Shown: positions 1,546-35,147 of the stretch, piece after piece
How the letters are laid out: every line of letters starts with the position of its first letter
Position numbering within the stretch: the stretch's first letter is position 1
DNA from: a virus
Taxonomy: Duplodnaviria; Heunggongvirae; Uroviricota; Caudoviricetes
Strand: one strand, 5' to 3'
Virus record (IMG/VR): IMGVR_UViG_2802429245_000015
DNA: 35,147 bases
Made by a program: the position numbers and the translations under genes
The notes under the pieces: generated by a model
Seen by the model: only the letters and a program-made list of their open reading frames with translations
Database searches by the model: none
What the model was told of the DNA's origin: nothing

Positions 1546-4500
1546 TTACTCGATGCGCACAAACAGGCAGATACGACCGCTTGTTCCGTAAGAGTCCCTG
1601 ACCCCGGATAACGCCATATAACGCCCCGGGAAAGTGTACCCTGTAGCTCCTGCACTCGGTGTGGAACCGTAGGAGCCAGCCCCCGCAGAAGATATTGTGC
1701 ACGAAAGATTAACTCCGCCCAGTTGTGACCCTGGCACCACATCACCCAGGCCAATTTTGATTTCTTTATCCCCGGAAGTTGTTCCGCGATAAACAGCAAG
1801 CACCGGAACACCCACTGCCGGGTATTTGAAATATGAGCCTGAGCCTGCTGTCCGGGACAGTAAGAACGCCAGCGAATCGCCGTCGTAAATGACAGGGCTT
1901 ACTGTTGCATTCCAGTTGTTTCCACTCCAGCGGTAAGTCAGGCGATGAATACTGTGCTCACCTTCGTAATACTGGTTAAAACACAGCAGCATTTTGAATT
2001 TACGCGTTGTGTCTGATTCATCGTTATCAAAGGGCGACCACATCACATCAATGATGCCGTTAAATTTTGTGGTGCCTGCCAGTAGTGTGGAAGAGTCCGC
2101 AATGCTGACCGCATAACGCCCCGGGGTGGCCTCTTTCAGCCATTCAGCAAAATCGGCCTGTCCGTCAAATGTCAGGGCTTCGGTGCTGGCAAATGCCTGA
2201 CCGAACCCATACATGCCGGACAGTGCCAGCCTGCCCGGTGTGCGGTCGCGGATATCGCTCTGGGGTTCCATCGTCGCAGCCGCTTTCAGTTCAAGCTCCG
2301 TGCGCATGGCTTCTGTCGTGTCCAGCGCCAGTAATGCGCGGGCTTTTTCTGACAGTTGCGCCAGTAAAATCCGGCCCTCTGCACTGAAATAAGGCAGCGT
2401 GTTTTCTTCCGGTGTTATCTGGCTGACAGCCGTTAACACGTCATTAAGCGGCTGTTTACCTGCCAGTGCTTTAGTGACCGTTGTCGCAAAGTTCGGGTCA
2501 TTGCCCAGCGCCGCTGCCAGCTCGTTCAGCGTGTCCAGGGTTTCCGGTGATGAGTCAACCAGCGCGGCGAGCAGTTTGCGGACAAACGCCGCATTGGCTA
2601 TCTCAGTGCCTGCTGCGTCATCCGGCGGGGTTGGTGTTGTCGGCGTTCCGGTCAGCGCCGGGCTTTTCAGTGGTGCGCGGGTTTCAATCAGCGCCCTGAG
2701 TGAAGCCTCATCAACCTTCAGGTTCTCCCACCCAACCAGATAACCACTTCCGGTGTAACGGTTGTAATAAATATGACCGTTAATACCGTAGAAAATAATG
2801 ACCTTATAGGCCTTATCATCGGTCGGGTAGTCATTGGGTGTTGGCCAGATAATTTCAACAACACCACTGAACAACACGCCCTGTATTACTGCTTTTGTAT
2901 CCGCATAAACGGCATAGCGTCCGGGTTTTGCCATTTTTACCCAGCGGAGAAAATCAGCTCCTGTTTTAAACTCGGTCCTGTCGATGCTGGAAAACGCTTT
3001 CCCAAACCCGAACATGCCGGGAATCGCCAGACGACCTTCGGTGCGGTCGTAAATATTCTCCTGCGCATCCTTCTGTGCTGCATTGCCAAGTTGTGGCGTC
3101 AGATTCGTCCAGGTGACCGGGGCGGAGATATTATCGCCACGAACGGTCATAAGAATCCGTCCGTCTTTTCCAAAAAACAGAACCAGCTTTGTTGCTGTCT
3201 GGCTGGTTTTGTCGCCCCAGCCATTATCCAGCCAGATAATTTCTGTTATCCCGGTGGTTTCTTCCGTTCGCGTGGAAAAGGTGTAATACCGTCCCGGGTG
3301 CAGGTTGTGAGCGGTTCTGGCTATATCCGCTATATTGCTGGCAATAATTGAACGTGCTCCGGCGTCCGTCATTCCGTAACCAAATGCACCAGGCAGCGCA
3401 ACGCGACCTTCCGTGCTGTCGTAAAGGTCTGTCTGTATGTCCCTTACCGCTGCGCTTTTCAGCTCAAGCTCATTACGCATGGCTTCCACTGTGGCCTGTG
3501 CCAGCAGTGACCGGGCTTTTTCTGACAGCGGAGACAGTGAAGCATTCCCGTCCTGATTAAAGCACAGAAGGTTATCGGCTCGCTCTTCCAGATTACTGAT
3601 AGCGGTTAACACGTCGCTGAGTGGTTGTTTACCCGCCAGCGCGTTCATGATTGTTGTCGCAAACTCCGGGTCATTGCCCAGCGCCGCTGCCAGCTCGTTC
3701 AGTGTGTCCAGGGCTTCCGGGGACGAGTCAACCAGCGCGGCGAGCAGTTTGCGGACAAATGCCGCGTTCGCCATCTCCAGCCCGGTCGCATCGTCCGGCG
3801 GGGTTGGTGTGGTTGGCGTACCTGTGAACGCCGGGCTGTCCAGTGGCGCTTTTGTTTTCGTCTCGTCCATGACGGTTTTGACGGCTTTTGGCGTGGCTGC
3901 CAGTTCTTCGCTGTCGTTGTCTGTATCACTACAGAGTTGCACCAGACCTTTTTCTGTCGTGGAAGCATTGCTTCCCTTCAGGTCATCAACTATCCGTTGT
4001 GCCTCGTCCCTGTGCTGTTTCGCGCTCTGCTCGCTTTTTGCTGCCGCTTCGGCGCTGGCTTTTGCCTCGCCGGTCAGCGTTGCAGCTTCACCGAGTTTAT
4101 CGACCGCTTTCTGGACTATCTTATCGGCATCTTTGACCGCCTGTTCTGCCCGGGCGGCATTCTGGTTTGTTTCGGAGGCCAGCTCTTCAGCTTTCTGGAC
4201 ATTACCCGCAATTTCTTCTGCATCCTGCCGTATTTCCCCTGCGAGGGTTTCTGTATCCTGGCGGGCCTGTTCAGCAGCGTCCGCATGCTCTCTGGCTTTT
4301 TCTGCGCTTTGCTGCGCCTGTTGCGCCAGTTCCTCGAATTTCTTCAGGGCTTCCGGGCGCAGGTCAATATCGGTTGCCCCCAGAAAATCATTCAGCGAAC
4401 CGTCTGTCGAATCTTCATAAACGCGAATGACACCGATTTCTGAAAGGCGCTGTGTGCTTTGTGTCAGGCGAACGCTGTACACACCCGGCAGAACGGGGAA

Positions 4501-7640: not shown

Positions 7641-8049
7641 TTGTGAGCGTGGTTTTGTCCGGGCGGGTTAACACCACCTGAAAGGCAATACGGTCAGGGA
7701 CGATGATTCTGGCCGTGACGGTGGCGTTACGGGCGTAACCGGCCCGCAGCAGCGGTTGCATGGACAGCCGCGCGTAATCTTCCACACGCAGGCGGACATC
7801 TTCCGTCAGCTTTTCACGCTCAAGCAGCCACAGGCGGGAACCCCACGAAAAATCGCTGTACGTGTCGCCCGGCCAGCCGCGCGGGTCGCCAGAGCCGTCA
7901 GGAATGACATCATCGTCATCAGCACGGGCATCGGTGAAAAGGCAGATAAGAACCTGAGTGACCAGCCCCTCATCCAGTGAGAGGCCGTTATGGGTGACGG
8001 TGATGTCACCCCGTGAGAGCATGTTATTCCAGCGGATTCCTGTCGTCAT
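7597..8049 (-). CDS. baseplate protein (Mu gp46-like)
   Basis: 150 aa between the V-like and J-like genes. Confidence 0.5.
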   Translation of the reverse strand: MTTGIRWNNMLSRGDITVTHNGLSLDEGLVTQVLICLFTDARADDDDVIPDGSGDPRGWPGDTYSDFSWGSRLWLLEREKLTEDVRLRVEDYARLSMQPLLRAGYARNATVTARIIVPDRIAFQVVLTRPDKTTLTIEITRRWEATINAV

Positions 8050-8582
8050 ACGGGCGGTGATGTATTCTCATTGTCGCCGTCCTTATGAATATGTTCGCTG
8101 AAAGATTTGCCGTTGATGGTGATGTCTTCAGTAAAATCACAGGGGCCGACGAATTTCATTTGTCCGCTGATGATATTCAGCAATTCGTCGGCAGTGAGAT
8201 TTACCGCTTTCCCTGAAAAGTCTAATTGTTCTCCTGTGATTTCAATGATGCCGCCTTCCTTCAGGGTGATGTGTGATTTGCCGTCCTGGTGATACAGCCG
8301 GACGTCGCCGGGGGACAGCCCTTTCGGGCGACATCGCTTATCCTCCACCGCGATGGCAACCAGCCCGTCACGCCGCCCGCTAACGGCCAGCACTATGGCT
8401 TCAGAACCTTCCGGCGGCACGGATGTAAAACCGTAGTTCTGGAAGCGTTCCACGTCGTCGTCGGTGGCATCTGCCAGCGTCTGGATTTGCAGGTTCTGCC
8501 GCTCCAGACTGTCAGACACCATGCGGACAATGGCACGGTCAACCATCAACCGCAGACGGCGGGCAATGGCGTTTAATCCCAT
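8046..8582 (-). CDS. baseplate assembly/spike protein V-like (Mu gp45-like)
   Basis: 178 aa; position and size. Confidence 0.55.
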   Translation of the reverse strand: MGLNAIARRLRLMVDRAIVRMVSDSLERQNLQIQTLADATDDDVERFQNYGFTSVPPEGSEAIVLAVSGRRDGLVAIAVEDKRCRPKGLSPGDVRLYHQDGKSHITLKEGGIIEITGEQLDFSGKAVNLTADELLNIISGQMKFVGPCDFTEDITINGKSFSEHIHKDGDNENTSPPV

Positions 8583-26241: not shown

Positions 26242-26838
26242 TCACCCCCGCGTGGCGGACATGATGCCTAAAGGGGTATCGATGATTTCCAGACAGGCGT
26301 CGGTCAGCTTTTCCATGCGGTTAAACCAGCCGTTCAGGTATTTTCCCTGGGCGGGGTTTGATTTGATGATGTCGGCATAAAAGCGGGAACGACGGACAAT
26401 GCAACGGGCCAGCAGCCAGTCCGGGGTGGACAGACTCACGGCCTTACGGGTACGCGGACCAATGATGCCGTCAGCATCCACATCAGCGGCTTCCTGCAAA
26501 ATCCTGATGGCTTTTTTAACGCCATGCTGAACCGCCGCATCGAACACAAACATCGCCACGCCATCAGGCCACTGGTCACATCCGGCAGGCAGCCAGTAAT
26601 CGCGCCAGTAAATCTGCGCAACCTGTTCGCGGGTTAAATCCTTAATGCGGGTATCCGGTTTGCCGTCGCCGTTGACATCGGTTTTGCCGTCAATCACACC
26701 GTCGCGGCGGTCAGAAATGCCGTATTTGGTTTCGCCGCCACGGTCAGTGGGGTCATTGACATAAACGCCTTCGATATCAGGACGCAGAATAAAATTCAGC
26801 GCATGCTCAAAGGCCGGGGAGAATTTTTGATTTTCCAT
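26242..26838 (-). CDS. endolysin, glycoside hydrolase family 108 with C-terminal peptidoglycan-binding region
   Basis: 198 aa; motif EGVYVNDPTDRGGETKYGI is the GH108 N-terminal signature; ATG at 26836-26838. Confidence 0.8.
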   Translation of the reverse strand: MENQKFSPAFEHALNFILRPDIEGVYVNDPTDRGGETKYGISDRRDGVIDGKTDVNGDGKPDTRIKDLTREQVAQIYWRDYWLPAGCDQWPDGVAMFVFDAAVQHGVKKAIRILQEAADVDADGIIGPRTRKAVSLSTPDWLLARCIVRRSRFYADIIKSNPAQGKYLNGWFNRMEKLTDACLEIIDTPLGIMSATRG

Positions 26839-26923: not shown

Positions 26924-27373
26924 TTAAGGGCGTCGTGGCGGACGACGAACGGGGTGAGGCAGGTTCGGGGAGTGGTAAAACAAATCCGGCTGGTATTTAT
27001 TACGCTCCAGACGTCGCATCCGTTTGATGGCCTTGTAGACGGTTTTATACGTCACCCCATAACGCTGAACCAGTTCAGGAATATTATGGCCGTTAAAATC
27101 ACGCCAGATACGCATATCCCGGACAAGATTCTCCAGAATATTCCCCCTAGGAACATAAACCTGCATCCCGCCGATATGGCGACAAATCGCCACAACCAGC
27201 TCAATGGAATGAGCAGGGTCTGCGCCAATCCGGGCCAGCTCTTTACGCAGCAGTGCGTTCAGTTCAGAAAGTAACGCCGGATAAGCGGTGTTTTCCTGGT
27301 AATCGTTAAGGTATTCCAGAACGCTGTCGTCCCGGAAGTCTTCGAATAAATCCTGCTCTTTCATCTGTTTCAT
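26924..27373 (-). CDS. mor: Mor middle-operon transcription activator
   Basis: 149 aa; ...FEDFRDDSVLEYL...YPALLSELNALLRKELARIGADPAHSIELVVAICRHIGGMQVYVPRG...RDMRIWRDFNGHNIPELVQRYGVTYKTVYKAIKRMRRL matches remembered Mu Mor, including the C-terminal helix-turn-helix. Confidence 0.8.
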   Translation of the reverse strand: MKQMKEQDLFEDFRDDSVLEYLNDYQENTAYPALLSELNALLRKELARIGADPAHSIELVVAICRHIGGMQVYVPRGNILENLVRDMRIWRDFNGHNIPELVQRYGVTYKTVYKAIKRMRRLERNKYQPDLFYHSPNLPHPVRRPPRRP

Positions 27374-27921
27374 ACAGCAATTCTCCCGCTGTTTCGTGCG
27401 CGGGCATATGCACTGGTCAGTGCATCATAGCCGCGCAGTTCCCGCCCGGATGGGCTTACAGGTAAAGGCACACCATGTCGGGCAAAGGCTTCCCGGATGC
27501 AGCGCATATGCCACTGTTTGAGCGTTTCGAGCACAACATGCAACGATTCCCCGTGACACCAGGCCAGCGTGGAAACACCCTGACCACCATTACGTCTGGC
27601 CGTCAGGCGTTCAACGTATTTGTCCAGCGCGGCGTCGCTGATATCGGAGACGAAACCATCAAGAAACATCTGCTGCCAGATTTTATAAATCTTCTCGCGC
27701 GGTGTGACATGCCCCTTAAAGCGACGGCGGGGATGTTTTTTCTGCTTCTTAAAACCGCGCTCTTTCATGGCATCGAGCACCTGTTCCAGTTGTGCGACAG
27801 TCAGTTCGCGGCAACTGGTCTTGCCTGTGCACTGCACCAGAAAGGCGCGGTAAGTGTCATCGTCGAGTTGTAGATCACGACGGGCAACATGGATTAATTT
27901 AATCAGGGATGTGCGACTCAT
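27370..27921 (-). CDS. gemA: GemA-like protein (Mu gp16 family)
   Basis: 183 aa immediately upstream of mor with overlapping stop/start; N-terminus MSRTSLIKLIHVARRDLQLDDDTYRAFL fits the gp16 family pattern; GGAGG RBS. Confidence 0.55.
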   Translation of the reverse strand: MSRTSLIKLIHVARRDLQLDDDTYRAFLVQCTGKTSCRELTVAQLEQVLDAMKERGFKKQKKHPRRRFKGHVTPREKIYKIWQQMFLDGFVSDISDAALDKYVERLTARRNGGQGVSTLAWCHGESLHVVLETLKQWHMRCIREAFARHGVPLPVSPSGRELRGYDALTSAYARARNSGRIAV

Positions 27922-27993
27922 AATCGTACCTCCGAAAAGGGGCGGTGCTGCAACACCGCCCGTACTATTGATAACACTGAAAATGGAGACGAC

Positions 27994-28233
27994 ATGTCTG
28001 TAGAAAACAATGCGTCAATCACTTTTAATCTGGTTTCGGGTCTGATGTTGAAACTTGTCCAGAACAAGACTCTGACAAAGGGGGAAGCTCAATCCATACT
28101 GGCCTCAGCAATTCTTGAAAACATTCAGAACCGGGAGGGCGTTACGGATCTTGATCTTCATGCGCTTCGTCTGAAACTTGCTATGTCTGATTTCAGCGTT
28201 GAAAAAGAGCCTCCACAAGACGCTCAGGCGTAA
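27994..28233 (+). CDS. hypothetical 79-aa protein on the opposite strand to the early operon
   Basis: ATG at 27994 with GGAG 5 nt upstream; fills a 270-bp gap with no minus-strand ORF longer than 18 codons; AT-richer than flanks; 3' end overlaps the convergent 93-aa gene by 41 bp. Confidence 0.4.
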   Translation: MSVENNASITFNLVSGLMLKLVQNKTLTKGEAQSILASAILENIQNREGVTDLDLHALRLKLAMSDFSVEKEPPQDAQA

Positions 28234-28474
28234 TCACGTCTGATGGTTTAAGCCCCAGCCTGCGGCGAATAAATTCGTCGCGGGCTTTTTTGTTATCCAG
28301 TGAAACTTCATCTGCAATAATATTAATTTCATGCTGGATAATATTCACAGTAACACGCGCAGACAGCCCTTCACGGATAGCAATATCAATAATATCGCGC
28401 ATACGCTCAAGCATTTTAGCCTTCACCAGTTCTTCATCCAGATCTTTGGGGATAAATGTGATTTCATCGTTCAT
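28193..28474 (-). CDS. hypothetical 93-aa protein
   Basis: ORF in the AT-richer segment; charged, helical. Confidence 0.45.
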   Translation of the reverse strand: MNDEITFIPKDLDEELVKAKMLERMRDIIDIAIREGLSARVTVNIIQHEINIIADEVSLDNKKARDEFIRRRLGLKPSDVITPERLVEALFQR

Positions 28475-28794
28475 TTTGCAGTTCTCAGAATAAATTCAGG
28501 ATAAAAATTCATACTCATTTGCTGTAATACATTCAACGCGGCAACCGCAGCCTGCTTATCATTCCCTTTGGCTATTCCTTTTAATTCTCTGATAATCCAT
28601 GCCGGGCTAAGCGCCTCAGCCATTTCCAGTCGGGCGTCGTTAAAAAGCAATAGCTCTGCATCATCATGTTTTTCGTCTTCCAGATAAGATACGAGCTTAT
28701 CCGCTGATTCCCTGCTCATTCCGCCAGCCATCAATGTGGCCCGAAACTCCGCATGCAGGGTTACTTCTTGTGTTATCATTTCATTCACCTTCAC
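28471..28794 (-). CDS. hypothetical protein (about 102-107 aa; ATG at 28777-28779 or GTG at 28792-28794)
   Basis: ORF; its ATG lies 2 nt after the stop of the upstream zinc-ribbon ORF. Confidence 0.45.
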   Translation of the reverse strand: MKVNEMITQEVTLHAEFRATLMAGGMSRESADKLVSYLEDEKHDDAELLLFNDARLEMAEALSPAWIIRELKGIAKGNDKQAAVAALNVLQQMSMNFYPEFILRTAK

Positions 28795-28930
28795 AATTCA
28801 CGCATGCCGTGTCATCGCCCATATCGCAGTGGTTGCATTTCTGCTCGCCACAATAAGGGCACTCTTTCAGATATTCAGGGACTTCATTACCGCAGGCCGG
28901 GCATTCCTGCTTTTCGTTTACGTTATTCAT
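28781..28930 (-). CDS. small double zinc-ribbon protein (49 aa, four CxxC pairs); absent from the ORF track
   Basis: Hand translation: MNNVNEKQECPACGNEVPEYLKECPYCGEQKCNHCDMGDDTACVNCEGE; GAGGAGG 9 nt upstream of the ATG at 28928-28930. Confidence 0.5.
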   Translation of the reverse strand: MNNVNEKQECPACGNEVPEYLKECPYCGEQKCNHCDMGDDTACVNCEGE

Positions 28931-29105
28931 TCCTTAATACCTCCTCGCAATAAAAGATTTCACTGGGATAACGTTTTTGTATGCGCTCCATCACCTGCAT
29001 ACATGACTGCTCTGTGGGCCAGATTTTTTCCGTTACGGGTATGGCATCACAGGCATCATTCCCGCAGGTGCCAACCAGCAGGACAAAGCCAATTGACTTA
29101 ATCAC
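28923..29105 (-). CDS. small Cys-rich, probably exported protein (about 60 aa from GTG 29103-29105)
   Basis: GTG preceded by GGAG at 7-nt spacing; MIKSIGFVLLVGTCGNDACD... has a signal-peptide-like N-terminus with a non-canonical lipobox; four further Cys. The track lists a longer 78-aa version (28923-29159). Confidence 0.4.
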   Translation of the reverse strand: MIKSIGFVLLVGTCGNDACDAIPVTEKIWPTEQSCMQVMERIQKRYPSEIFYCEEVLRNE

Positions 29106-29382
29106 TGCTCGTCTCCATCTGTTCCAGGCGCTGCGCTTCGCGCATACACAGCTGCGCAATCATCATCTGGCGGGTAATGCCTGCACGAATAAACGAAGCT
29201 GCGCGACGGAGATTTTTTGCATTCGCCTGTTGAATCAATGCAGGTACTGATGCCAGACATTCGGCGCTGTCTTTAATCAGCGTTGCTGCTGTTATTTCTG
29301 TTTTTTGTCGTTCACTCTTTGTGGTCATAAACATCACCATTTCAGATTCAGGCGCGAGCAATCCCCTGACGCATCGCGCCAT
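29098..29382 (-). CDS. hypothetical protein (up to 94 aa; start uncertain)
   Basis: First ORF downstream of gam. Confidence 0.45.
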   Translation of the reverse strand: MARCVRGLLAPESEMVMFMTTKSERQKTEITAATLIKDSAECLASVPALIQQANAKNLRRAASFIRAGITRQMMIAQLCMREAQRLEQMETSSD

Positions 29383-29422: not shown

Positions 29423-29947
29423 TTAAATACCGGCTTCCTGTTCAAACGGAATAATAGAAAAATCTTCAATGCCCGATTTAACTGTAATTCCGGCAACACC
29501 TGCGACCGCTTTCGGTTCCAGTAAAATCGCTTCCTTGTTGATTTCCTGTTTCGTGCGAATAAAGCGTTGCAGGCCAAGACGCTCCAGCGTTTCCATCACC
29601 GCATCCACACCGCGAATACTTACCGATGGTGGGCGCTGACGCCATGACACATCGCCGGTTACCAGGTTCGCCGTCTTCACCTTGCCGCCGTTCGTCAGTT
29701 CGTCACGGTTCGCTTCACACCACCCCTGAACGCCTTTTGAAAGGGTTTCAATACTGGTTTTAAGGGGCGCAATCTGTGAGGCGTATTTCTCCGTAATCTC
29801 AGCGATAGCGTCATTCATTTCCGTTTCAAGTCGTGCTGCTTCGCGTTGCAGGTCACCAATCCGGCGGATATCACATACCACGGCATCGCGGGATTGCGGA
29901 ACATAAGCCGCTGCGGCGTTCTTGATTCGTTTTGCTGGTTTAGCCAT
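29423..29947 (-). CDS. gam: Gam host-nuclease inhibitor (Ku-like DNA-end binding)
   Basis: 174 aa; MAKPAKRIKNAAAAYVPQSRDAVVCDIRRIGDLQREAARLETEMNDAIAEITEKYA...GITVKSGIEDFSIIPFEQEAGI matches remembered Mu Gam along its length. Confidence 0.85.
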   Translation of the reverse strand: MAKPAKRIKNAAAAYVPQSRDAVVCDIRRIGDLQREAARLETEMNDAIAEITEKYASQIAPLKTSIETLSKGVQGWCEANRDELTNGGKVKTANLVTGDVSWRQRPPSVSIRGVDAVMETLERLGLQRFIRTKQEINKEAILLEPKAVAGVAGITVKSGIEDFSIIPFEQEAGI

Positions 29948-34622: not shown

Positions 34623-35147
34623 ATGATGTCTTTTGAAATCAAAGAATGGTTTAATGCGAAAGAGCTGGAAGGGATGCCTGGTGTACCAAAGTTGGCGACT
34701 AACATTACCAGGAAAGCTGTGGCGGAAGATTGGGTAAAACGTCAGCGTCACGGTGGGAAAGGTGTCGCTTATGAGTATCACATCAACAGTCTGCCAGAAG
34801 AAACACGTAGGGCCATTAAAGGAACCTCACTTTCTGATAAACCAGTGCATACATCAATCGCCCATACAGTTGATGAGAGGCTAATTTATGCAATGAGCTT
34901 CTTAACACCAGATGAGCAGGCCGCAGCTGTGGAGATCATTCGTGTAGCAGGGATTAAAGGACTTATGCCTACAATTGTCAGTAAAGATAAGGCATTAGAG
35001 GCATTAGGGATTACTGTGGAGCAACAGAAAACCCTGCAAACTCTTCAGGCATTACCACCGGAAAAAGTAAGAGAGATTTTGTCTCAGTATGAAGGCAAAG
35101 AACATAATTTCCCTGCAAGAGAAAACGATGTAAAGAAAGCCGTATAA
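34623..35147 (+). CDS. c: prophage repressor c (Mu/D108 Repc-type)
   Basis: 174 aa, divergent from ner; C-terminus ...LPPEKVREILSQYEGKEH...KKAV resembles Mu repressor; N-terminus [26 protein letters not shown] is homologous to the A N-terminus in this window ([26 protein letters not shown]). Confidence 0.75.
   Translation: MMSFEIKEWFNAKELEGMPGVPKLATNITRKAVAEDWVKRQRHGGKGVAYEYHINSLPEETRRAIKGTSLSDKPVHTSIAHTVDERLIYAMSFLTPDEQAAAVEIIRVAGIKGLMPTIVSKDKALEALGITVEQQKTLQTLQALPPEKVREILSQYEGKEHNFPARENDVKKAV

Follow-up and report, generated by a model that had tools for sequence, protein, structure and literature searches.

The window, by which is meant the whole 35,147-nt stretch of DNA that was analysed, is a complete Mu-like (Muvirus-type) prophage in reverse orientation, and the minus strand carries its early operon. 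Pfam searches identified the domains Gam, GemA, and Mor together with a Mu-type repressor DNA-binding domain. The best DNA matches in the phage collection were Mu, D108, SfMu, and Mu-like Yersinia phages (81-85% identity over 37-51% of the query), and the gaps left unmatched against these phages fall exactly in the region of interest, which lies in the last part of the 'semi-essential early' region, between the zinc-ribbon gene and gemA. A megablast search against complete E. coli genomes returned no match. The features of the region are collected in Table 1. A single gene on the + strand is divergently oriented with respect to gemA, with 72 nt between the two start codons, and overlaps the gp14-like gene of the minus strand tail-to-tail by 41 bp; this open reading frame, its ribosome-binding site, the overlap, and the GC hairpin just before the gemA ribosome-binding site are all present as the initial annotation described them.

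Table 1. Genes, domains, and signals in and around the region of interest (positions of the window)
Feature	Position	Strand	Description
Mor domain	26924-27373		Pfam domain
gemA (GemA domain)	27370-27921	-	Pfam GemA 3.7e-33
GC hairpin	27940-27961	-	GGGCGGTG-CTGCAA-CACCGCCC (GGCGGTG-N6-CACCGCC); early strand
Ribosome-binding site GGAG	27985-27988	+	Five bases before the ATG of the 79-aa gene
+ strand gene	27994-28233	+	79 aa; divergent Mu gp15 family member
gp14-like gene	28193-28474	-	93 aa; Mu gp14 homologue, phrog_6075
Intrinsic terminator of + strand gene	28257-28296	+	13-bp stem (28257-28286) followed by TTTTTTGTTAT
Third gene	28471-28794	-	107 aa from GTG 28794; likely ATG 28779, 102 aa
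Zinc-ribbon gene (Mu gp13-like)	28781-28930	-	49 aa; Pfam zinc ribbon, phrog_5584 1.6e-29
Gam domain	29423-29947		Pfam domain
Repressor DNA-binding domain	34623-35147		Pfam, Mu-type

None of the three proteins encoded in the region had been recognised in the initial annotation, and all three proved recognisable. The 93-aa protein is 41% identical to Mu gp14 (E = 2e-24; PHROG match 1.2e-33), the 102-aa protein is homologous to SfMu gp14 (49% identity, E = 2e-29; phrog_1988 match 9.5e-32), and the 79-aa protein, which is identical to WP_105266495.1, is a distant member of the Mu gp15 family. For the third gene the ATG start was considered more likely because the SfMu and vB_YpM_3 homologues are so annotated. 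In SfMu the three genes are all present, and their order and orientation match those of the window (gp14, gp15, and the opposite-strand gp16). Mu has gp14 and the opposite-strand gp15, and D108 has gp14 and an unannotated opposite-strand ORF; the gene for the 102-aa protein is absent from both. The initial annotation had proposed that homologues of all three ORFs at the same place and orientation in Mu and D108 would speak against an accessory island, and this is essentially what was found, with two of the three in those phages and all three in SfMu.

The AT-richness that had been noted by eye was borne out by windowed GC. The GC content is 44.4% at 27940-28794, within the lowest 2.2% of same-size windows, compared with 54.5% for the whole window, 56.4% for its late region, and 48.7% for its early region, and GC3 is 39-44% in the three genes of the region against 55% in gemA and mor. 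The dip is not peculiar to this prophage: in Mu, D108, and SfMu, too, gp14 and gp15 are poor in GC (42-46%) beside a gemA of 54-55%, so that low GC is a trait of the lineage and no evidence of import.

The + strand ORF is a real protein-coding gene under purifying selection, judged from the pattern of substitution and the frames that stay open. Three window-type alleles whose proteins are 81-89% identical give a dN/dS of 0.28-0.29 in the + frame (Fisher p = 0.002), and stops interrupt all five other frames, including all three minus-strand frames of the gap. Across nine allelic types the opposite-strand frame is the only one open from end to end, and all types have a normally spaced ribosome-binding site. 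The ORF had been described as the only one in its gap; short TTG- or GTG-initiated ORFs of 37-49 aa also exist there, and it is the only spanning, conserved ORF. The view that it is a genuine, separately organised gene is thus supported.

An opposite-strand gene between a gp14-like gene and gemA was found in the window, in Mu, SfMu, and D108, and in the further Mu-like loci L079-L088; slot and strand are kept even in distant Salmonella and metagenome prophages (L085-L088). In the RefSeq record of Mu (NC_000929), the 88-aa Mup15 (NP_050619) is encoded on the opposite strand between gp14 and gemA, with a tail-to-tail overlap with gp14, and the left-end record M64097 from the 1980s already carries this frame as 'putative F-134'. 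SfMu gp16 is the equivalent of gene 15, in the same slot and on the opposite strand, and the unannotated ORF of D108 (119 aa, phrog_38610) likewise occupies this slot. Of the distant relatives, P0028 and P0021 are encoded on the opposite strand at a distance of 71 nt from the gemA start and overlap a gp14-like gene, and the P0025 gene overlaps its gp14-like gene tail-to-tail.

At the sequence level, BLASTP of the window protein against Mu gp15 gave no alignment. The same program aligned it with P0028, of the Salmonella type, over 73 residues (E = 7e-7) and with the D108 type (E = 2e-5). Profile comparison with hhalign gave P = 2.6e-4 for the window type against the Mu type, 7.8e-5 for the window type against the D108 type, and 1.3e-5 for the Mu type against the D108 type, and the models phrog_8747, phrog_38610, and phrog_32893, which represent different gp15 types, match one another. 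No PHROG family was matched by the window protein at E ≤ 0.1; its membership is therefore at the superfamily level and runs through intermediates, the link to Mu gp15 consisting of about 30 aligned residues, synteny, and the P0028 and D108 types as intermediates. On this footing the window gene very probably belongs to the gp15 family, known but uncharacterised, to which it adds a new and divergent member. All gp15 types are recovered by the family profile at E ≤ 1e-22. The family is tiny and lineage-restricted, with 12 clusters among 5.8 billion proteins and only 30 relatives in an HMM scan of 1.84 billion representative proteins, all of them named 'hypothetical protein' and, where a source is named, from Escherichia or Salmonella. 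The most distant profile matches, P0033 and P0036, lie in unrelated contexts and were left out of the family.

The updated Mu record AF083977 drops gp15 and lists Mu_54 (7960-8127, early strand). When Mu was compared with the 33%-diverged loci L026 and L032, the gp15 frame was stop-free with dN/dS of 0.29-0.32 (p = 2e-4), while the Mu_54 frame contained two stops and gave dN/dS of 0.47-0.54. The comparative data thus favour gene 15 of RefSeq over Mu_54 of AF083977.

With a pI of 4.9 the 79-aa protein is acidic, like most members of the gp15 family (pI 4.3-5.5). An AlphaFold2 model built from a 29-sequence alignment has helices at residues 3-23, 29-42, and 52-64, with a mean pLDDT of 78.5; in the first two helices the pLDDT exceeds 90. 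Members of the family align colinearly, with an N-terminal helix of the form [FY]D.A.F.LAGN.L..LV.KG.I and a second helix with the pattern ..EA..I..., followed by a variable loop, a third helix, and often an acidic tail. Searches of the protein against Pfam, NCBIfam, and PADLOC gave no match, and those against PDB no match of substance. Fold searches with the model returned only generic or designed helical bundles, and the top structural match in BFVD was the Mu F-134 ORF with a non-significant E-value of 0.9. A match to the N-terminal domain of T4 MotA (PDB profile, E = 0.023) was rejected because it consists of two short 'G[IV]IT..EA..I' matches with per-stretch E-values of 2.8 and 310, and a SHOCT-like Pfam match of one family member (E = 0.0014, below the cut-off) was taken as motif resemblance only. 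For the neighbours, PADLOC gave no match to the 93-aa protein and sub-threshold noise only for the 102-aa protein, and domain and structure searches left gp14 equally anonymous, with no toxin or antitoxin domain. Literature searches turned up no work on what Mu gp14 or gp15 does.

Two hairpins bound the + strand gene. On the minus strand, the hairpin in front of gemA is followed by CUUUUC, the gemA GGAGG (27933-27929), and the gemA ATG (27921). The 81-nt stretch that contains it (27915-27995) has a predicted fold of -25.7 kcal/mol (z = -2.8). The stem is strong, with 8-9 GC-rich pairs, and the tail is just CUUUUC; the terminator scan did not call it, and with this short U-run it can be described as terminator-like on the early strand. 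Its bases are nearly unchanged in almost all loci with the gp14/gp15 module, among them L004 and L049, which have a deleted gp15, as well as the distant L085 and L086. In AF083977 a 'semi-early promoter' for gemA is annotated over the same interval.

The other hairpin is the intrinsic terminator of the + strand gene, located 24 nt past its stop codon and inside the gp14-like coding sequence, whose conserved 'ARDEFIRRRLGL' part encodes the stem. The stem with its T-run was the only terminator-like site reported in a scan of 27700-28900, and the 67-nt stretch that contains the stem (28234-28300) has a predicted fold of -24.6 kcal/mol (z = -3.1). Across the nine allelic types, 88.9% of stem cells are paired; sliding the partners lowers this to 35-51%. 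Three pairs show compensatory changes on both sides. Equivalent stems are preserved in Mu, D108, L019, L085, and L086. Because this terminator is inside gene 14, the + transcript must cover about 100 nt of the 3' end of gene 14 in antisense.

Promoters were sought with a prediction tool and with a weight matrix of our own. No sigma-70 promoter upstream of the + strand gene in any allele scored above shuffled or random expectation, and no sigma-70-like promoter for gemA beat random sequence. A gemA-directed candidate just upstream of the hairpin (-10 AATAGT, -35 TCGTCT) is weak and putative. The + strand gene may have an activator-dependent or weak promoter.

About 60 Mu-like loci were gathered through GemA, plus contigs encoding close relatives of the 79-aa protein, and presence or absence of gp14 and gp15 was scored in 54 loci, many of which are near-identical and so are not independent samples. 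Both genes were present in 33 of the 54 and neither in 19, gp14 was accompanied by a gp15 reduced to its last 20 codons in two (L004 and L049), and gp15 without gp14 was found in none. In 11 of the 19 loci with neither gene, an unrelated opposite-strand gene of 134-138 aa stands next to gemA (phrog_585, with a weak DUF2513 match); its DUF2513-like product was rejected as a gp15 relative (hhalign P = 0.02-0.2). More distant GemA elements, at 52% identity or less, are without the slot, and a same-strand gene abuts gemA in them; a scan of genome contigs with GemA yielded distant loci of this kind only. L004 is the plaque-forming Yersinia phage vB_YpM_3, in which gp15 is cleanly deleted; gene 15 is therefore dispensable for plaque formation and lytic growth.

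Proteins gp14 and gp15 diverge in parallel, with gp15 changing at about twice the rate of gp14. Identities for gp14 and gp15 are 92-94% and 81-89% within the window type, about 54% and 29% to the D108 type, and 41% and 25% to Mu, and gp15 falls to 25-29% between types while gemA stays above 80%. Because the genes overlap, their physical linkage would be enough to explain this co-divergence.

The nearest relatives of the window on both flanks are L016, L019, and L026 (95-97% nucleotide identity). Similarity ends at 27960/61 for L019 and L026 and at 27921 for L016, which has no hairpin, and resumes in all three at 28923-28926, each carrying a different occupant in between. Relative to these relatives the window carries a swapped cassette, 27961-28922, which holds the + strand gene, the gp14-like gene, the 102-aa gene, and most of the zinc-ribbon gene. 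The left edge of the cassette is exactly the hairpin, and the right edge, at about 28922, is within the zinc-ribbon gene. The description of the region as an accessory island thus stands as far as a swapped, variable segment is meant, and fails in that the content is inherited in the Mu lineage, with syntenic homologues and lineage-wide low GC. Genes 14 and 15 are a conserved convergent pair that is inherited together and exchanged between phages as part of a cassette, and gene 15 is a fast-evolving gene that Mu-like phages have inherited, not foreign cargo.

The explanation that we favour, with moderate confidence, is that the + strand gene is an allele of Mu gene 15 that forms its own expression unit, convergent with gene 14, and whose product partners gp14. 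The gene is self-contained, made up of a ribosome-binding site, an ORF of 79 codons, and a terminator, and it stands head-to-head with gemA across the hairpin. As it faces the early promoter Pe, it cannot be expressed from the lytic early transcript and needs transcription of its own, which would most plausibly take place in the lysogen. After induction, strong convergent early transcription through gene 15 would shut it down, which would make it a gene of the repressed (lysogenic) state. An acidic three-helix product without a DNA-binding or enzymatic signature makes protein binding the most plausible mode of action, and the co-inherited gp14 would be the most likely target, with gp15 as its antidote or modulator. 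The mechanism in this specific form, an independently transcribed lysogen gene whose product binds gp14 as antidote or modulator, is put forward only tentatively. Against the model are the promoter searches, which gave nothing above chance, and a co-divergence that may reflect linkage; the gp14-gp15 interaction is putative. The near-identity of many loci, the missing PHROG match of the window protein, and the removal of gp15 from AF083977 also count against it. Toxin-antitoxin genes are expected to be adjacent and always together, which holds for gp14/gp15 in these non-independent loci (33 with both, 0 with gp15 alone). Neither a known toxin or antitoxin domain nor a co-directional autoregulated operon was found, the two genes being convergent, and the occurrence of gp14 without gp15 in the viable vB_YpM_3 argues against a simple toxin.

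A further elaboration of the favoured reading, which we consider a long shot, is that genes 14 and 15 form a co-evolving convergent two-protein switch, in which gp15, made only during silence of the early operon, would check gp14 or gemA-mor, and that phages would swap the specificity pairs as a cassette with a conserved hairpin at either end. If true, a paradigm phage would have a checkpoint between lysogeny and lytic growth, or an exclusion module, that had gone unrecognised.

Among the alternatives, the most probable is that gene 15 is prophage-expressed cargo aimed outside the phage, for superinfection exclusion, anti-defence, or defence, with gp14 a mere neighbour, much as the initial annotation had suggested. 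It would account for the fast divergence of gp15 beside a stable gemA, the exchange of the gene as a cassette, its replacement by the unrelated phrog_585 gene in 11 loci, and its dispensability. The product is moreover small and acidic, like many phage inhibitor proteins, and overlapping opposite-strand genes near the early region of phage Fc02 confer exclusion (PMC9936078). Against this, nothing from PADLOC, Pfam, or NCBIfam ties the gene to an exclusion, toxin-antitoxin, or defence role, no promoter was found, and homologues occur at the same position in distant Mu-like prophages and never without gp14; with this fixed position and constant company the gene resembles an integrated module more than it does a free moron. 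On balance we judge cargo of this kind to be unlikely.

A role at the level of RNA or transcription was also weighed, in which the antisense transcript and polymerase collision would tune or insulate gp14 or Mor and the protein would be secondary. The convergent geometry, with the terminator inside gene 14, means that the transcripts must overlap; the unit is directly upstream of gemA-mor, by the terminator-like hairpin and the annotated 'semi-early promoter' of Mu, and both hairpins are kept across divergent alleles. However, purifying selection on the frame, the three-helix motif, and the ribosome-binding sites of all alleles show that the gp15 protein is important, a phage with the cassette deleted is viable, and a search of Rfam gave no match. 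A primarily RNA-based role is accordingly regarded as quite improbable. That the + ORF is a chance or decayed frame, in a gap that is empty or holds a small same-strand gene like Mu_54, is highly improbable: the listing of Mu_54 without gp15 in AF083977, the failure to detect a promoter, and the missing PHROG match would fit it, but the minus-strand stops in the window-type gap, the opposite-strand frame that alone stays open across nine types, the interrupted and less constrained Mu_54 frame, and the conserved ribosome-binding site and terminator all speak against it.

Mu is a textbook phage, yet its records disagree on gene 15, with the gene in RefSeq and Mu_54 in the revised GenBank entry. 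The comparative evidence given here supports the opposite-strand gene and its coupling to gene 14, and a small exchangeable cassette next to gemA-mor is now defined. For the window, this means that the 'island' is inherited phage content and not acquired defence or toxin cargo.

Several known systems can be compared with this locus. The pR/pL interference of coliphage 186 and the type I toxin-antitoxin pairs with 3'-overlapping RNAs are control modules built on convergent transcripts. The window resembles them in that the 3' ends must overlap, with scope for interference or RNA pairing, and differs in that both partners encode conserved proteins; toxicity or interference here is putative. Phage morons, or lysogenic-conversion genes, are self-contained, variable, and dispensable units that are AT-richer than their surroundings and stand against the operon with their own terminator. 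The window gene, too, has its own terminator with a T-run, opposes the operon, and is AT-richer, variable, and dispensable. Unlike morons, it has no recognisable promoter, its position is fixed across the lineage, it is coupled to gp14, and its low GC is lineage-wide. In the transposable Pseudomonas phage Fc02, olg1 and gene 10 are overlapping opposite-strand exclusion genes, one of them expressed in the lysogen (PMC9936078). Fc02 and the window have in common a transposable phage with an opposite-strand gene overlap near the early region; the Fc02 genes differ in that they adjoin the repressor and ner, bear no sequence similarity to those of the window, and have a tested function.

The closest comparison is with gene 15 of Mu and gp16 of SfMu, which share with the window gene the slot, the opposite strand, the tail-to-tail overlap with gp14, the ribosome-binding site, a downstream hairpin inside gp14, and a similar size and acidity. 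The proteins also have a common N-terminal motif, G..L...L[VI].K..[IL]T..EA..I. The differences from Mu gp15 are an identity of about 25%, a length of 79 aa in the window against 88 aa, and an overlap of 41 bp against 62 bp, and the T-run of the Mu terminator is weaker than that of the window. The D108 ORF and its relatives (P0010 and P0014) likewise have the same slot and strand, with BLASTP similarity to the window protein, and the D108 terminator stem is preserved through compensatory changes. The D108-type ORF differs in its 35-aa acidic N-terminal extension, its other C-terminal half, and its absence from the D108 annotation.

In the revised GenBank record of Mu (AF083977.1, locus L005), the opposite-strand gene 15 was removed from the gap beside gemA, and a same-strand ORF of 55 aa, designated Mu_54, was annotated in its place. 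Comparative data favor gene 15, of which the plus-strand gene of the window is an allele, over Mu_54, because every allele compared keeps the gene 15 frame open, and the dN/dS of this frame is lower than that of the Mu_54 frame, which is interrupted by stops in relatives.

An opposite-strand ORF that is absent from the annotation was also identified between gene 14 and gemA in phage D108 (NC_013594). This ORF corresponds to phrog_38610, and identical copies are carried by two other collected loci (L043 and L048). In 11 Mu-like loci without gp14 and without gp15 (L016, L021, L035-L037, L039, L040, L053-L055, and L060), the opposite-strand gene encodes a protein of 134-138 aa that belongs to phrog_585, is unrelated to gp15, and has a weak match to DUF2513. 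Its start lies 30 nt away from gemA, and these loci lack the conserved hairpin near the gemA ribosome-binding site. Opposite-strand genes of two or more kinds therefore occupy the position adjacent to gemA.

Clean natural deletions were found in Yersinia phage vB_YpM_3, L049, and L052. The first two retain gp14 and the hairpin, and their gp15 remnant comprises only the 20 codons overlapping gp14; in L052 both gp14 and gp15 are gone, except for the first five codons of gp15.

In the early-strand RNA of the window (27915-27995, minus strand), GUCGUCUCC, the antisense of the ribosome-binding site and start of the plus-strand gene, was predicted to pair with GGAGGUACGAU, the gemA ribosome-binding site, thereby enclosing the conserved hairpin. 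This predicted pairing may restrict how much gemA is translated when it is carried on the long early transcript, or it may be a trivial by-product of two divergent ribosome-binding sites.

The third gene of the low-GC region (28471-28794) more likely starts at ATG 28779, which is preceded by AAGGTG at good spacing, than at GTG 28794. The respective products are 102 aa and 107 aa, and the homologues in SfMu and vB_YpM_3 are annotated with the former length. Between gam and the zinc-ribbon gene (28923-29382), the window lacks homologues of gp11 and gp12, and two small genes lie in their place. The gene matching phrog_16556 probably starts at GTG 29105 and encodes a 60-aa product, whose N-terminus, MIKSIGFVLLVGTCGND, looks by eye like a lipoprotein signal peptide.

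Coordinates of the features described, in the window or in the numbering of each collected locus
Feature	Location	Strand	Remarks
gp15 deletion	L004 (vB_YpM_3) 2021-2071		
D108 ORF	L002 2090-2449	+ (of locus)	119 aa; in 376-bp 'empty' gene 14-gemA gap
phrog_585 gene (example)	L016 about 2066-2470	minus	
Mu_54	L005 1661-1828 (Mu 7960-8127)	same as early genes	AF083977.1 annotation; compare L001 2091-2357
Small gene 1	within window 28923-29382	minus	94 aa, phrog_24376
Small gene 2	within window 28923-29382	minus	matches phrog_16556
GH108 muramidase	window 26242-26838	minus	198 aa

Between mor and the middle-operon genes, the window encodes a GH108 muramidase with a PG_binding_3 domain, which is a second lysin-like gene additional to the usual endolysin. 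Unlike the window, Mu has no gene at this position; several relatives do (L079, L080, L083, and L084).
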